Source: Octopus sinensis
Lineage: Eukaryota
Assembly: GCF_006345805.1 (NCBI RefSeq)
Contig: NC_042999.1
Span: 144,150,001-144,214,000, forward strand
Reading direction: 5' to 3'
DNA length: 64,000 nucleotides
Under the pieces are notes generated by a model, which was not told where the DNA came from, made no database searches, and was given only the letters and a program-made list of their open reading frames with translations. The translations under genes were made by a program, and so were the position numbers. Of the stretch, positions 32,557 to 60,757 are shown in pieces (within the stretch, counting starts at the first letter, position 1; each line of letters begins with the position of its first letter).

Positions 32557-35483
32557 CAGGGGTGGGCGAACTTTTTTGATCGCGGGCCGCACAGTGCGTC
32601 TTTGGAATCTTGGCGGGCCTCATTTATAAAAATCAAGTGAAAATATTTTTAAAGGCGGTTATAGACCTATAAACACACAATTGATTGAAAGGAAATTTTG
32701 TGAAATATTCCTGGTTTAAGTGATTTAATTTATTTTTTAGAGTATCGGGTTCATGTTTTTCGGTTATTTGCTCCTATAGTTGAAATTATTACAGGAACCT
32801 CGGTTATTTTGGACAACCTGTTATTGCTTACAAATTGCCAGGAACGGAATTTTCCTAGTAAAATCTGCACTAATTGTGGACAACTACCTCTTAATATTAT
32901 GGACAACCATGATGAATATTATACTTAAATTCTAGGATACCCAAAATAAAAGATTTTAAAGAGAAATAACAGTATATTAATATGAATTGATATCTGAAAT
33001 TAGAAACGTCACCTGAAGCATTTATTTGAAAAACAAAGCGGCTCTGTAAATAACAATGTCAATGAGAATGATGCAGCTGACTACTGTCATTTACCAGTTT
33101 GTCAAAATTAGGTGTCAAGTTGCTTGTGCTGATTCTTAACACTGACTGAAGATTTGAGTCTGTGAGAAGTGATCGATTCTTCCCCTTGTTAATTTTCATG
33201 ATGGAGAAAGTCTGCTCACATATGTAAGTTGATGCAAACAACACAAACATCTTTCTTGCAAATTTTTTTAGATTTTGAAACTTTTTTGAATGTAGAGAAG
33301 CATAAAACTCGATCAGTGGTTTACTTTCAAACATCATCTTTAAAGAATTGTCGGCTTGCAAATGAATCAGTTCTATCTGCAGTTCCTCGGTAGTTGTTTC
33401 AATGTCACAGGCAAGAGGTGAGTTAAGCAAATCGAACAGGCCTTCAACTGCCTTGAAATCAGCAAATCTTCTAATGAATTCCTTTTGTAAAGCCATCAAC
33501 TGGGAACTGTACTTGTCCGATGATTCTTGTGTAACAGACTGTGCTTTCAGCAGAGGGAAGTGAATAAATTTTTGCTCATTCAGCTGCTCGGCAAAAAGTC
33601 CAAGCTTCCATTGAAAAGCTTTCACTTCCAGGTACAATTCATGAGCAAATATACCTTTGCCTTGCAGTTTTGTGTTAAGTTCACTCAGCTTCTGCATTAT
33701 GTCCACAGCAAATGCAAAATCACAAACCCATTCGTCACTCCTCATTTCGTTTAAAAAGTCACAGGAGATGTCTTGCATTTTGAGAAACATAAGAATCTCT
33801 GCTTTGAGGTCCCATACTCTCTTAAGAACTTTTCCAATGCTTAACAAGCGGACATTTGTGTAGTACAGCACATCAGTAAAATCAGCCTCCACATCCTCCA
33901 AGAAACTTCGGAATTGCCTGTGTTTCAATCTCCGTGATCTTATTAAATTCACTGCACGCACCACAGGTTCGATGACATGTTTGAGTTTTAAAGATGACTT
34001 ACAAAGGCTTTCTTGATGTATGATGCAGTGAAAAAACAACACACTGTGTAGTGGAAAATCTTCTTTGATTTTGTCATTCAACAACTTCACAAGGCCGGAA
34101 TGTTTACTGGTGAGTGAAGGAGCTCCATCGGTTGTAATGCTGGCCAGTTTATTTAAGGTTAATCCAGACCTGATTGAACTGTTAATGACACTGTTGAACA
34201 AATCTTTTCCAGTAGTAGTGTCTTTGAGAGACTCCATAGATAACAATTCCTCTGTAATTTCAAAGTTTTCGTCAATTCCTCTGATGTAGATGAGTAACTG
34301 AGCAGTATCCTGAATATCAGTACTCTCATCTAAAGCAATAGAAAACCACTGAAATCGACCACTGGCTGTTAACAGCTGTTCATGAATATTCACGGCAATT
34401 GCATCAATGCGACGAACAATAGTTCTTCGTGACAGGGAAATGGCTTCTACTTTTGACTTAACTTCAGGACACACAACGCTGACAGCATCAACCATACAAT
34501 CTTTGATAAATTCTGCTTCTGCGCATGACTTGTTTTGCTTTGCAATTTTGTTGGCCAATATAAAACTTGCCTTTGTCGCGTTCCTTTGTAAAGAGGAAGT
34601 TTTATCAAACACATTTTGCTGTTGCTTCAAACGTTTAGTCAGATCATTTGCTTTCTTTTGCAGTTCTTGTTTTGATAAATTGTGTCCAAAATTGGCGTGC
34701 TTCGTTTGAAAGTGGCGTTTCAAATTAATATTCCTTGAACACAGCAACTGTTTCAGAACAAATCAAACATTCAGCTTTCACTCCAACGTCGGTAAAGAAA
34801 TACTTTTCAGTCCGATTTTCATTAAAAACACGACATTCCTCTTCAATTTTTCGCTTTTTAGATAGCTTCGAACAACTCATTTTGGGTAAATTTTATCAGA
34901 CAACAAAAGCTAGTTTGAAACACTCGTGTCTGTACTAAATTCAAATAATCGATAGAGTGAATGATAACCAACCACAGCTCTGTGTCCAGAAAAAGCTGGT
35001 TCAAGCCTTTTTATTAACCTGGCCGGCTTCTTCATTGGAACGAAAGGCATCGTCCATCATGCCCTCTTCACCATCTATCACGTGATTTATTTATTTGAAT
35101 GTTTCAAGCATATCGATTGGCTCGTTGTATTGCCACAATACTTGTTTCATTGTTCTATTAATTTTTGTTTTTGTAGGGTCTTACGAGAAAACACAGAAAA
35201 GATATCTTCACCCGGAAATGTGTTTTATTATGATGTCATGGGAATATTTCTCGAAATTTTTCATCGCTTCACGGTAGCTGAAAAGAGACAAACAGCGGAC
35301 AATTTTGTGAAGGCGCGAAACAGTGAACTGAAATAAAATGCAAACTATTGTGAATTACCGTACAACTGAAACAGTTACGAAGTATCTGCATAGAAGTTGG
35401 GATTCATAAAAGCTCTCGGCGGGCCGCATGAAAACCTATGGCGAGCCGCATGCGGCCCGCGGGCCGTAGGTTGCCCACCCCTG
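32557..35483 (-). mobile_element. Full-length hAT transposon (SPIN/Charlie/Buster-type), 2927 bp
   Basis: TIRs CAGGGGTGGGCGAACT / CAGGGGTGGGCAACCT, exact 8-bp TSD CCCTAAAA (32549-32556 / 35484-35491), subterminal GCGGGCCGC motifs, transposase inside. Confidence 0.95.
33059..34880 (-). pseudogene. hAT transposase (GTF2IRD2/SPIN-like, ~606 aa) with a single +1 frameshift
   Basis: ATG at 34880: MSCSKLSKKRKIEEECRVF..CLICSETVAVFKEY, then one extra base near 34727, then NLKRHF..SIALDEST..ITTDGAP..HCIIHQE..STYICEQTFS. The DDE triad is intact; the conserved RW motif reads RL. Confidence 0.9.
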
Positions 35484-50944: not shown

Positions 50945-51435
50945 TAATGAAATTATTGTATACAGTGCTCAGGTGCACCACAACTTGTCAGAAAGTGCAT
51001 ATAAAGTACATGCAGTAATGTAGAAATGTCTGGAAAGTGAACATGCTTGTGTGTGTATGGAGGGGAGAAAATCAAGTGTAGTGTTGGCGAATCTCAGGAA
51101 GCATGGAAGTCTTGAAGGATGCAGTGCTCCGACAACTAACAACCGATGCCGGCAGTTTGTTCCACGCTTCAGCAACTCTCAGCGTGAAAAAATGTTTCCT
51201 GAAGTCATGGGAGCTGTGCTGTTTTCTTACTTTGTAAATATGTCCACGGGTGTTAGATGGGTGGAGTTTGAAGAGGTGCTCAGTGTTATTGTTTGTGCGA
51301 TGGTTGATAATTTTATGGGTGTCTGCCAGGTCAGCTGCCAGACGTCGGAGTTTCAATGTGTCCATGCCCAGGGAAGTAAGGCGTTCGGGATATGGCAAAT
51401 GCCTGATGGAGGGTATTCTTTTGGTTGACGTTGAT
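50945..51435 (-). mobile_element. 3' end of a CR1 LINE with (ATT)n tail
   Basis: LPYPERLTSLGMDTLKLRRLAADL..TRGHIYKV..RKHFFTLRVAEAWNKLPASVV (canonical CR1 ORF2 C-terminus). Confidence 0.85.
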
Positions 51436-51506: not shown

Positions 51507-53431
51507 TTATTTTGTAATGTTTGTGTGGTTTTGTCGATTATAATGATCTTTGTACTTACATGAAACGTTTAGAGTGACGTCAGTCAAAACAAATTTTGTC
51601 TTTGAAACGAGTTCTATGTGAATTCGATTTACTATTGACAAGTTCCCGAAAAGTTTGATTCTATTCACACCTTCGATTAAAAAATACGTATTGTTAAGTA
51701 TTAAGTCTGATTTAGAGACTTTAATGAAGAAGGTTATATCGTCTGTTTTATTTATTTCAAAATGGAAAATAATATCTTGTGGATTAGTTATTTTAATTTG
51801 GACGGTACTGTAATTTCTAGAACTTGCTTGAATCATTATAGCAGATATGCAAAATGAAGGATTGTATGAAAAAAGAGGTGTTTTACCGTCACCAACTTTT
51901 ATATTCGAAAGTGTTTTATTTGTATTCAATAAATAAATATCGTTCGTCAGTATACAAGTTTTGACACCCACCTGTTGAAAAGCCATTCTAAAAGGGTTAA
52001 CATCAAGACCAATATAATAAGCAGCGCGAATAACATCACAAGCTCCGGTTGAAAAATCCGATGTTGGATGCCAATACAAACGATTGGCTAACATAAATGC
52101 GTGATAGGCATCTTTGATTGGAATTCTATAATCCTGGACCACGTAGTAGAATGCTTTGTTATAAATACCACAACCAAAATGAGGGTCTAAGCTTTCGGTG
52201 TAATTATCGTAATGGTTCACAGACAGTTTATCCTTTGAGGGATCATCCAAAGATCTAAATCCTCTATCATCAGATTTTGTTATATACTTCCCTATTGACC
52301 AGTCATTTTGTCCGAGATAAGCTTCCAGAGTTTCACCTGTTATGTCAGAGAATGATTCGTCCATAGAGCCAGACTGTCCGAAATTCAAAAGACAGGAATG
52401 TTGTTCGGTGAAGCCATGTGCCACTTCATGACCTATGATATCAGCCACTGTATAAGGATAAGAAAACTCTCCTCCGTTACCAAAATTGCATTGCTTTCCG
52501 TCCCAGAATGCATTGTCAATATCATAATATACTCCAATTATTAATTTGTTCCGTAAAATTTTAGTCCCGTACCAGGAAAGAAACATATCGAAAAGAGCAC
52601 TGCCGTAATACAGAGCATCACGGGCAGGAGAATTAGCTCCATTAACTGAATCATCAAAATTATCGAAGCATTTATAGCTGACTACATTGTCAGTATCCCT
52701 ATAGGTTGGACGTCCACTAAAATTGAGAACTTTTACATATTGGTTCTCCAGAAAACAGGTATTCCCTTGATTTCTCTTTACAAAAATTTTCCGATTGTCT
52801 CTGCTGTAAACAAACGTTCCACTTTTCTCATTACCACCGTGACCAGTGAGTAAATGGGTAGCAAAAGTATCAAGTTTCGACCATTGTAACAAAATATCTC
52901 CGGTATGAGCGCTTATAAGAAACGCCGGTCGCTTAACCACTTCATCAGTATATATTAGGTAATCAATTTCGTAGATCAAACTTACATCGCCGAAATCATC
53001 AACGTAAACTTTTCTGTGCGAATTATAGTTGTAAATGTTCTTTTTAAACTGACCGTGCCCAGCCGAGATGATTGCAATATCTAAAGCTTCTTCCTTGGTT
53101 AATGTCGCCGATAATAATTTATCCCAGTGATGATAGGTACTCAGCCCCTGGATAACAAAACCGCTTGCCAAACCGGTTAGTTCACCATTAGATTCGATTA
53201 CGACCGAAAGTGTTCCATCGTAGATAGGAATATCTTTGTACAATTGTCGCAACTTTAAGATCCGAAGTCCTTGGCTCGTGTTAAATTGATCAATAACATC
53301 GAAACTGTTCGGTGGCACAAGACCAAAGAGATCTGTGAGTGCAGTTGCTTTATTCAGCCGGTAATTGTATTGTAATTGTTCTTTAACATTAATACGGTTC
53401 AAACGTCGCCCAACGGGTCTCGGCATAAGAA
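51507..53431 (-). CDS. Thermolysin-family (M4) zinc metalloprotease, pseudolysin/vibriolysin-like: propeptide (FTP/PepSY-like) + catalytic domain + ~140-aa C-terminal domain; probably the large last exon of a spliced gene
   Basis: Uninterrupted ~640-codon frame with RQLYKDIPIY (FTP), FLISAHTGDIL (PepSY), GHGGNEKSG, VNGANSP, NAFWDG, HEVAH (52430-52416), GSMDESFSD (third Zn ligand), DPHFGCGIYNKAFY, ANRLYW and AFQQVGV. The 5' boundary is set at a pyrimidine tract + CAG acceptor; the first in-frame ATG is at 53426. Confidence 0.92.
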
Positions 53432-53465
53432 CTGTAGAGACAAAATAAAGAATTAAAATAAGCAA
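53432..53465 (-). promoter_or_regulatory. Candidate 3' splice site (polypyrimidine tract + CAG), phase 1
   Basis: Minus strand TTTTAATTCTTTATTTTGTCTCTACAG|TTCTTATG; the ORF track start here is a TTG. Confidence 0.7.
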
Positions 53466-53724
53466 AGTATATATTCATGCATTTCCATGTGTACACACGC
53501 ACACGCGTGCGCACATACACACACACACACAAACACATTTAATTTCAGTGCAGTTCAAGTATGGGGACATGAAATCCTAAGTAACTGTAGAGGAGTGTAA
53601 GCTGTAGTTATAACCCAACCAGCCAATTTTATTATGATTTACATTATGTTACTCATTCTTCTGAATGAAACGTAAGAGAGTGCAGTAAAATAATTTTATA
53701 CACAATTTCACCTGTTTCATTTTG

Positions 53725-53764
<40 letters not shown>

Positions 53765-53767
53765 TTC

Positions 53768-53799
<32 letters not shown>

Positions 53800-53913
53800 G
53801 CTATATATATATAGAGAGAGAGACACACATACATTCAACACATATACGTGTGGGTGTGGGTGTGTGGGTGTGCATATGTTTATAGGTTTTTTTTTCTATA
53901 TCCTTTTCTACTC

Positions 53914-54095
53914 TAGGCACAAGGCCCGAAATTTGGGGGGAGGGGGTCAGTCAATTAGATCGACCTCAGTACACAACTGGTACTTAATTTATCGACCCCG
54001 AAAGGATGACAAGCAAAGTCGACCTCGGCGGAATTTGAACTCAGAACGTAAAGACAGACGAAAAACCGATAAGAATTTCGCCCGGCGTGCTAACC
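53914..54095 (-). mobile_element. SINE family A
   Basis: Reverse complement of 595-800. Confidence 0.8.
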
Positions 54096-54491
54096 TTTAT
54101 GACTAAGCTCAGAATGCCTCGGTTTGTTTGTTACTGAGGAGACTAGACGAGGTGAAACATTAACATATATTCACGCGCATATGTATGTACATATGTATAT
54201 ATATATGTAGGTACGTATTTTGTATATATTATCACGTTTTTGCTTTTCCATAAATTTGTTAAATGCGCATACAGACATTTAGCGCTCTTCATTTATCATT
54301 GTCATTAGTGACAAGGTTCATTATAGTTCAGATGCTGCGAATAGATCAATCTGCGATATTATCCTACCATCTTCGTTTAGTTAACCTACGATTTCTTCTG
54401 TCTTTAACTAGTCTCTTAAGACATTCTGTTGAGAGGACTTAGTGGAGATTTAATATACCCTAAGAGTTTTAAGATTTTTAGATCATAAATA

Positions 54492-54522
<31 letters not shown>

Positions 54523-54554
54523 CATTAAGATCTAAAATTTATATAAACATATGC

Positions 54555-55826
54555 ACTCGGGGAAGTCAAAAGTTATCCGTACTTTTACCGTTGGCTACAC
54601 TGCCTTCAGCGCTCGCGGGCGAAGAAGTTGGTATTCTTGTGTTTCTGTAACCGAGGTTTGACCTTGATCGCTCCAGTTTTCTTTCTTGTGTTACAGAGTA
54701 AACAAGACCAGACCGCTGGCAGTGTGCAACAATGAAGAACAGAGATCAGTGACCTGATTTTTCTGGTCTGAAACTGTGTCAGGAACTGAAATTCATTGTA
54801 ATTTAGCGCTCTACCGCGTGGAACTGTGTATGAGAGGATCGAGAAGTTTAAAAACGATCGAACAAACGTGAAGCACGAAGAGGGAGCAGAATAACCATCA
54901 ACCTCCACCATTGATGTGAAGATTCAACAAGCTCGAGTGATGGTTCAGTCAAAACAACGAATAGTTATCGATGTTATGTTCTCTGCAAGTAAGTTATAGT
55001 TCTGCATTCGAAATCCTTCGTGACAAACTTCGCTTACGTAAAATATATGCGAGATGGGTACCTAGTGAGCTTACTAAAGCACATAAGTGCAATTGTGTGG
55101 AGATCTGTCAATGCCTACGTGACTGCTACAACGATGAAGTCGAAGCTCTTTTGAAGAGAATAGTTACAGAAGATACAACCTGGGCCCCATCACTTTGAGC
55201 CAGAATCCAAAAGTCAGAGTATAAAGCGGATACACCCGGAATCGCCCACGAAAAAGAAATTCAAGGCTCAACCTTCCATAGGAAAAGTTATGCAACCGTT
55301 TTGGGTAACGCAAAAGGCCTATACCAGAATATTACCTGGAAAAGGGGTCTACAGACATCAGTGTAGGATACAGTGAAATGCTGGTCAACAAAACTGAAAC
55401 CAGCAATTCGCACCAAACATTGAGGTTTATTGTTAAAGCAAGTGTTATTGTTGCACGCCAATGCACGTCCATATATGGCCGCCCATATCGTTGAAATCAT
55501 TGAAAAATTGGAATTCTTGTTACTGGAACACCCTGCATACAGTCCGAATCTTGCCCATTCCATCTATCACCTCTTTGGACCGCTCAAACATTGTTTACGA
55601 GGTCGTTGATTTGCTACAGACGAAGAAACGAAGGAAGCGGCACATAAATGGCTGCGCAACCAACCGAAAACCTTCTCCGATGGAATAAGCAAGCTAGTGG
55701 ACCGCTGGAAGAAGTACATTGAAAAGCATGGAAATTATGTCAAAAAATGATGTAATTGTTCAGCCCTGCTTTATTTTTAATAAATTATGGAAACAAGAAT
55801 GCCTATAATTTTTGTCTTACCATCAT
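54555..55826 (+). mobile_element. Full-length degraded mariner element
   Basis: RKIYARWVPSEL, RIVTEDTTW, HANARPY, HPAYSPNLA, LVDRWKKYIEKHGNYV; decayed TIRs; multiple stops and frameshifts. Confidence 0.88.
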
Positions 55827-55835
55827 ATATATATG

Positions 55836-57685
<1,850 letters not shown>

Positions 57686-57742
57686 TTATATATATATGTG
57701 TAATATATATATTATGTATATATATATATATACATAGATATA

Positions 57743-57815
<73 letters not shown>

Positions 57816-57832
57816 ATATATATTATATATAT

Positions 57833-57865
<33 letters not shown>

Positions 57866-57929
57866 CATATCATATTATATTATATTTATATATTATATTA
57901 CTTTATATCATTTTATATACTATGTTTAC

Positions 57930-58036
57930 TATGTTTTTCAGCGGCAGAAAGATACAAAAGTGACATAAGGCTCGAGAATTTCGTGCATGGCACATATCAC
58001 TGTCACTTTTGTAAATTTCTGCTGCTTAAAAATATA
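57930..58036. repeat. Small fold-back (~35-bp imperfect arms), MITE-like
   Basis: CAGCGGCAGAAAGATACAAAAGTGACA / TGTCACTTTTGTAAATTTCTGCTGCTT. Confidence 0.6.
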
Positions 58037-58115
58037 AATAAGTATATATGGTCATGTATTGATTTCTATTTCTTTTGTCTGTAGTGCTATGTGTGTGTAT
58101 ATATATATATTATAT

Positions 58116-58161
<46 letters not shown>

Positions 58162-58188
58162 ATATATATAATATATATATATATTATA

Positions 58189-58220
<32 letters not shown>

Positions 58221-58690
58221 GTGTATGTATGTATGTATTTATATATATATATATGATGCAACCATAGACATACCATACATAAACATGCTAGCGCGCACAC
58301 ACATACATCCATAGAACATAGAAACCCACACGAATAACTAAACATATTATGTACGTATAAATATATAAACATAAAAGCAAGTAAGAAGAAATTAGAAGTA
58401 AATACTCACTGACAACCAATTCAAAATAACACCAAAAATATATTCTAAAATATAGCATTGTTTAGCATCACTTCCTGCAAAAACACATGGAGCTTGCAGA
58501 CGATTCGTTCGCCATGACGTGTAGGAAAGCTATCCCAGAATTCCTGAAAACACGCAGTTCGTTGAGTTAAGAGCTAATGTCAGTTTATCTGATAATTTTT
58601 TTAAAGTTGTATCAGTCTGGTAGAGAAGTTTATATACGGCAGTAAACTTCGTGGGGAAAAGAAGGAAAGAATATGCAAGCAAACCGAAAC

Positions 58691-59886: not shown

Positions 59887-60757
59887 CTAGGGTTGATCAA
59901 TAAGTATCCGGACTGGTGCCATAGTAACGAAGTTAAATCATGCAGAGTAAAGCCGCTTGGCACAGATTGATCTTGAACTCTGCAGTGCATACGCACTAAG
60001 TTTTAACGTTCTAGCTCACCTTCGCTGTTTACAGAACTGTTTGGAAGGAGGATGTGTAGCGTGTGATCGTCGCATTGACCCCGACAGAGAAAGTTGTCAT
60101 GGCGATACCTGCTCAAAGGCCTGCGCAAAGTTGCAGGAAGTGTATGGAGTGAAGTGTATGAGCCGCACACACGTGTACGAGTGGTACAGACATTTCCAAG
60201 ATGGTGGAAAAAATGTCGATACTATCGAACGTTTTCGGAGACCCGCAACCAGCAGAACTGAGAAAAGCATCGCAGATGTGTGTGTAGCTGTGAGGGGAAA
60301 TCGTCGAATCACCATCCGTGAGTTATCAGAGGATGTTCAGATTAGTTACGGTTCAGTTCAGTCCATTATCACTGAAGATTTAGGTATGAGACGTGTATCT
60401 GCCAAAACTGCTCACAGCTAACCAAAAAGACACTCGGGTTTCAGTTGCACAAGATCTCTTTGATTGTATCGAGAACGATGAAAACATTTTGAAAACTTTG
60501 CATAGGCCTCTGAGCAGGTATCGCCAAGCTTTTGGCAAAATTTGATGCAGATTCTCTGCTCAACTTTCTCTGTCATGATCAACGCGACGACCACACGCTA
60601 TACAAGTTCCTTCGAAGCACTGCTGTAAACAGCGAAAGTGAGCTAGAACGTTAAAACGCAGCAGAGTTCAAGCTCGATCTGTGTTAAGGGGCTTTACTCT
60701 GCGTGCTTTAGCTTCGTTACAATGACAACGGTCCGGATACTTATTGATCATCCCTCT
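59887..60757 (+). mobile_element. Non-autonomous mariner derivative whose 3' end is an inverted copy of its 5' end
   Basis: Transposase N-terminus (LQEVYGVKCMSRTHVYEWY..NRRITIREL..LGMRRVSAK); 60494-60757 is the reverse complement of 59887-60132. Confidence 0.88.

Follow-up and report, generated by a model that had tools for sequence, protein, structure and literature searches.

A spliced vibriolysin-type M4 protease gene of Octopus sinensis, probably captured from a Gram-negative bacterium at or before the origin of the molluscs

Vibriolysins are M4 metalloproteases of bacteria, described from MCP-02 of Pseudoalteromonas (PDB 3nqx and 3nqz) and HapA of Vibrio, in which a signal peptide, an FTP motif, a PepSY-like region, the M4 and M4_C domains and a PPC (pre-peptidase C-terminal) domain follow one another in this order. 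Their nearest well-characterized relatives include Pseudomonas LasB (pseudolysin; PDB 1ezm and 8cr3), whose chains of 498–514 residues stop after the catalytic domain, and Legionella ProA (NF045902). To our knowledge, animals are usually described as lacking M4 proteases. Bilaterian GH13 amylases are reportedly one case of a bacterial gene domesticated in animals, and domesticated bacterial genes are also found among centipede venom families (PMC7864903). Here we analyze a window of 64,000 nucleotides from an octopus chromosome (the whole stretch of DNA considered) that holds a gene with the same order of domains as the vibriolysins, but which differs from them in having an intron, a PPC domain too diverged for Pfam, an Asn where nearly all M4 proteases have a Tyr and two further cysteines close to the active site. 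Like the centipede and amylase cases, it represents a secreted protein of bacterial type that an animal lineage has retained and multiplied; unlike them, it belongs to a different family, and one that reaches across at least four classes of molluscs. We think it probable (about 0.7) that this is a spliced two-exon vibriolysin-type gene that goes back to a single capture from a Gram-negative bacterium at or before the origin of the molluscs and that encodes a predicted secreted, self-activating protease. The genes are annotated, the enzyme family is known and so is this kind of event; the transfer to molluscs, a clean case in view of its pan-molluscan age, common intron position and PPC domain, is apparently undescribed as such. 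No paper on molluscan M4 genes, as a transfer or otherwise, was found in the literature searched, and subscription papers, MEROPS or supplements may list them.

The M4 sequence lies in a stop-to-stop frame of 655 codons on the minus strand (51507–53474). The initial annotation had taken this frame for an intron-free gene; it is instead exon 2 of a two-exon gene, the coding part of exon 1 lying 4,978 nt upstream (Table 1). In the frame, Met first appears at residue 17 of the product, and a pyrimidine tract with a terminal CAG at 53432 stands before it; the hydrophobic start of the frame (IYTLL...), considered as a signal peptide without an ATG, was rejected because it is this intronic tract. 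Exon 1 was located by searching with the N-terminus of the O. bimaculoides model, to which it gave the best match, with 14 identities in 16 residues; its coding part encodes the opening half of the putative signal peptide. Contigs from sequencing runs X9 and X16, which belong to different studies, end exactly at 53431 with 311 and 146 letters left over, and the same contigs cover exon 1 (58410–58690 and beyond in X9, 58410–58555 in X16), where their loose ends are the opening letters of exon 2; among the four runs compared on the frame, the RNA status of X9 and X16 is a guess and the junction is direct. The DNA-sized run X2 continues past the junction into the intron, to 53499. It gave no contig on exon 1, and runs X6 and X14 gave none on the gene, which carries no information either way. 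At least half of the gene's words are present in 20 of the 24 listed runs (9 studies), none of whose records marks RNA. Contig and gene differ at three positions, all residue-changing and none in the active site. Since only one locus in the genome search matches at 100%, the junction is unlikely to come from a processed copy. The spliced product of 657 residues is identical to P0347, RefSeq XP_036357344.1 of Octopus sinensis, named “elastase-like”; such names, like “neutral protease-like” in other RefSeq mollusc models, are automatic, and the annotation seen carries no origin, PPC tail or shared intron. The gene is integrated in the host chromosome, spliced and transcribed. Its composition is host-like (GC 36.2% and GC3 32.4% in the exon, 33.5% GC in the intron), in line with the earlier description of it as AT-rich like its flanks.

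The surroundings of the gene were described at first as bounded by (CA)n tracts, a CR1 fragment and a SINE. The (CA)n tracts are there on both sides, but the upstream one falls inside the gene's own intron, as does the SINE-like repeat at 53900–54100 (67 blastn pieces in 344 kb). In addition to microsatellites and this repeat, the intron contains a fragment that we take to be mariner-like. Downstream of the gene, the high-copy repeat fragment, presumably CR1-like, reaches a summed DNA depth above 100,000; that of exon 2 is 8. The M4 frame is real, but it is not the only long intact frame in the window: a frame of 567 codons at 33059–34762 encodes a hAT transposase with its dimerization domain. 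It sits in an apparently intact hAT transposon at 32557–35483, with terminal inverted repeats and an exact 8-bp target duplication, that may be young. Mariner-like fragments occur at 59951–60421 and 54520–55500 (Mos1-type HTH), the latter being the intronic one, with short matches near two M4 copies on contig C11, and a short interstitial TTAGGG array lies at 1961–1994.

Table 1. Coordinates, within the window, of the parts of the octopus M4 gene and of the adjoining repeat.
Feature	Position	Strand	Basis or detail
Exon 1, 5' untranslated part	58459..58690, reaches at least 58690	-	Contig coverage
Exon 1, coding part, 49 nt	58410..58458	-	ATG, 16 codons plus one base; GTGAGT donor next
Phase-1 GT-AG intron, 4,978 nt	53432..58409	-	Contig junction and sequence
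Exon 2, coding part	51507..53431	-	Residues 17-657 and stop
Propeptide: FTP motif at residues 59-103, PepSY-like region to about residue 207	52860..53306	-	Pfam, Foldseek
M4 catalytic domain, about residues 208-510	51951..52859	-	Pfam, PDB alignment, 557-protein alignment
Diverged PPC domain, residues 511-645	51546..51950	-	Profile-profile comparison, Foldseek
High-copy repeat fragment, downstream of gene	51040..51425	.	DNA depth

The Pfam scan places FTP (E 1.7e-5), Peptidase_M4 (71.5 bits) and M4_C (86.8 bits) above their cut-offs. PepSY was not found by Pfam in the octopus protein, and it falls below the cut-off in three of the ten animal relatives scanned; the FTP/PepSY propeptide proposed earlier is thus recovered in its FTP motif and in its fold, but not in a Pfam match to PepSY. 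The fold was read from the AlphaFold model of the O. bimaculoides orthologue (96% identical; pLDDT 78), in which Foldseek matches the propeptide to that of MCP-02 (3nqz_A; E 1e-12) and recognizes the thermolysin fold, with MCP-02 (3nqx) as the best match to the model (E 1e-27; 35% identity). The C-terminal tail has no Pfam match and, taken as a single sequence, matches no PPC profile, but a profile of 20 subfamily tails matches one of 23 bacterial PPC tails with a probability of 95.8 and an E-value of 8e-9 over 100 columns, scoring 52.9 against 16.7 for the best of 20 column-shuffled controls; the tail profile of subfamily B (see below) matches bacterial PPC at 98.3% probability. Foldseek of the tail returns collagenase PPC and collagen-binding domains weakly (E 5e-3 to 2e-2), and a single-sequence fold prediction was unusable (pLDDT 37). 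Together with the propeptide and catalytic matches, the tail argues that the captured gene encoded a full vibriolysin-type precursor.

By sequence, the best PDB match is the pro-elastase LasB (E 6e-66), followed by MCP-02 and ProA, with thermolysin far behind (E 8e-21). LasB is colinear with octopus residues 163–508, and all five motif pairs given in the initial annotation are present in the alignment; the octopus protein nevertheless adds a 135-residue PPC tail to the LasB plan, so that its closest architecture is that of a vibriolysin rather than of LasB. ProA matches at E 1.6e-76, but with 258 bits against an equivalog cut-off of 900 the protein does not qualify as ProA. Four conserved cysteines of the catalytic domain, Cys242/271 and Cys481/509, are shared with the vibriolysin group and are presumably paired as disulfides as in LasB.

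The gene is one of a family within the octopus genome, where 11 matches from a protein search mark 10 M4 loci on five contigs: C3 (the gene in the window), C11 (five loci), C30 (two), C27 and C10; a Pfam search gave nine above the cut-off. The exon-2 frame is unbroken at seven loci and broken in the assembly, by split frames or an early stop, at L004, L006 and L010, which could be assembly errors or pseudogenes. With a fixed count of 15 codons back from a shared motif, blind to the AG, a splice acceptor (AG with a pyrimidine tract) was found at the same codon and in the same phase (phase 1) at all ten loci. Six exon-1-like stretches, five of which have a GTAAG donor of matching phase, accompany four copies in the C11 neighborhood, where exon 1 comprises 16 codons plus one base; with C11-type queries, no first exon was found for the C10, C27 and C30 copies. 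The simplest reading of the common acceptor position within the signal-peptide region is that the intron was gained once, ahead of the spread of the family. Four C11 copies (L002, L003, L005 and L006) stand in tandem some 20–30 kb apart and differ from one another by 1.0–3.3% in propeptide DNA against 3.6–18.6% in the cleft region. The subfamily-B copies L007–L009 (C27 and C30) have a GC3 of 49–52%, compared with 24–33% in subfamily A, and L009 adjoins a zinc-finger frame. Purifying selection is seen both in the gene itself, where substitutions relative to the O. bimaculoides orthologue (633 of 657 residues identical) number 4 in the 303 residues of the catalytic domain and 20 in the 354 elsewhere (Fisher p 0.003), and among the three subfamily-B copies (dN/dS 0.16–0.20); the C11 copies give 0.37–0.82. 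Values of dN/dS between the octopus gene and its paralogues were discarded as saturated (dS above 2).

Named relatives come from three Octopus species (including the orthologues of O. bimaculoides and O. vulgaris), Argonauta, four Haliotis species, Liolophura, Physella, Gigantopelta and Ylistrum, that is, from cephalopods, gastropods, a chiton (Liolophura) and a scallop (Ylistrum), at least four molluscan classes. The suggestion that the transfer was ancient rather than lineage-specific accordingly holds across octopuses, snails, chiton and scallop. Among the matches listed, every named non-molluscan one is a bacterial or metagenome entry, with no named non-molluscan eukaryote among the best 120–150, beyond which distant eukaryotic relatives may exist; the Atlas search returned only bacterial M4/M36 clusters. 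In a FastTree phylogeny of 557 catalytic domains the named molluscs fall in one clade of 53 proteins (0.91), which has 94/90 support in an IQ-TREE analysis of 71 hand-picked sequences (LG+G4 without a mixture model, 306 columns, bootstrap not fully settled). In the same analysis molluscs, a second clade described below and the Gram-negative LasB/vibriolysin/ProA proteins form one group (100/99) set apart from seven outgroup M4s (Bacillus, Streptomyces, Nostoc and Burkholderia protealysin-like). The designation of the gene as a bacterial-type M4 is supported. An origin from this Gram-negative group is likely. The molluscs lie inside bacterial M4 diversity, but no named subgroup holds them: the AU test does not reject a tree in which the bacteria of the Gram-negative branch all stand together and the animals fall outside them (p-AU 0.497), and ProA, their weak sister in FastTree (0.79), loses that relation's support in IQ-TREE. 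Nesting within a single proteobacterial lineage does not emerge from the tree or the AU test. Subfamily A comprises cephalopods, gastropods and the chiton, and subfamily B octopus and the scallop. Since subfamily A spans the chiton and other molluscs, the family predates the chiton–conchiferan split, which is Cambrian or earlier.

The transfer may also be older than the molluscs, having taken place in a lophotrochozoan or bilaterian ancestor with subsequent loss in most animal lineages, a possibility that we take seriously but hold to be less likely than not. It would account for the second clade, likewise of 53 proteins, which groups with the molluscan clade (FastTree 0.89; IQ-TREE 81/79). 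These proteins look like animal ones, since megabase contigs carry numerous copies of them together with fragments; they form multi-copy arrays, have longer tails (e.g., P0023, P0097, P0169, P0215 and P0216), and 15 of the 26 checked have the post-signal motif of the molluscan proteins. The support for this clade is, on the other hand, below the starred level, and its members could be molluscs or the product of a separate transfer; joined at only 81/79, it leaves room for a greater age or for two transfers. Tentatively, a single pre-molluscan capture of an entire vibriolysin gene would have founded an overlooked protease family of several invertebrate phyla, with one signal-peptide intron, repeated expansion and a rebuilt active site in octopus. 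Were this so, some “bacterial vibriolysin” transcripts from mollusc tissues would be host genes.

Under the favored capture at or before the origin of the molluscs, a bacterial vibriolysin gene would have been acquired complete with its FTP, PepSY-like, M4 and PPC parts, would then have gained an intron in the signal-peptide region and would have duplicated into at least two subfamilies, with further expansion afterwards. By analogy with MCP-02 and LasB, the N-terminus would direct the protein to the secretory path, the FTP-PepSY propeptide would fold and block the enzyme until self-cleavage near residues 205–210, H351, H355 and E375 would hold the zinc while E352 activates water, and the PPC tail would bind insoluble substrate. 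With grazers and a filter feeder among the carriers, the family most likely served at first in extracellular digestion of a general kind or in the turnover of matrix. For the octopus protein the most likely role, at about even odds, is to digest food or matrix protein outside the cell as part of a secretion of gland or gut. Alternatively, the octopus copy might have been taken into service as a spreading enzyme of saliva or venom. A secreted-type protease with a predicted matrix-binding-type tail and a lineage-specific expansion in octopus would suit such a role, and bacterial genes supply other venoms (PMC7864903), but we consider it unlikely; the same grazing and filter-feeding carriers mean that venom cannot be the ancestral role.

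Whether the octopus copy still works as a protease depends on its active site. The HExxH motif is present as H351, E352 and H355, with E375 as third zinc ligand, so that the protein carries the M4 zinc motif, although the third-ligand motif reads DESFSD and not the NE.FSD first proposed. H351, E352, H355, E375, D379 and R409 are invariant in all 557 aligned M4 proteins and H434 is kept in 555. Position 366, which by its spacing from HExxH we take to correspond to thermolysin Tyr157, is Tyr in 541 of the 557 and Asn in eight, four of these being the octopus gene and its Octopus orthologues. In thermolysin, Tyr157 stabilizes the transition state (PMC7021514), and the prediction for the octopus copy is thus a lower rate or a changed specificity. 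Cys437 occurs where 544 of the 557 have Ser, and Cys363 is likewise unusual; the two may possibly form a new disulfide near the active site. The signal region is also atypical, with Glu13, a Pro-Val-Gly-Arg-Arg stretch in place of the paralogues' small-residue site and a hydropathy peak of only 2.3 in the putative signal peptide, which makes the predicted secretion less sure than for the paralogues. On these grounds, together with Asn366 and Cys437 in the Octopus orthologues, the copy could be a weakly catalytic or non-catalytic binding or membrane-anchored protein, with proteolysis left to the paralogues. We find this improbable: zinc ligands, general base, R409 and H434 are all kept, conservation within the protein is highest in the catalytic domain, and the other four Asn366 sequences are those of other aligned M4 proteins. 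N-glycosylation sequons were considered as a mark of eukaryotic adaptation and rejected, since a catalytic domain has on average 3.3 of them in the molluscan proteins (n = 28) and 3.4 in the bacterial ones (n = 70; p 0.93).

Vertical descent of the family since an early eukaryote, or a transfer in the opposite direction, with animals as donors to bacteria, would fit the failure of the AU test to put the animals within a bacterial subgroup; we hold either to be very unlikely given the purely molluscan make-up of the named eukaryotic matches listed, the position of the LasB/vibriolysin/ProA branch within wider bacterial M4 diversity, and the whole bacterial architecture, PPC included, combined with a single intron. 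Bacterial contamination or misassembly, which 1.9 kb of uninterrupted coding sequence and bacterial best PDB matches might suggest, is excluded by the exact spliced junction in contigs of two studies, with the 174-Mb contig, the orthologues and the paralogues among the 10 genomic loci pointing the same way; the initial annotation, too, had argued against a contaminant.

For the study of molluscs, best-hit labeling can take host M4 transcripts for microbial ones: in a study of whelk egg fluid, two vibriolysin-named transcripts are assigned to bacteria (PMC10913743, Table 2), and these might be host M4 genes. A family common to four molluscan classes would be among the older lasting transfers of an enzyme from bacteria to animals and would put a date on an intron acquired once a transferred gene had settled in its host, with the donor-type bacterial group being the same whose vibriolysins damage shellfish. 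For cephalopod biology, it offers a candidate digestive or glandular enzyme.
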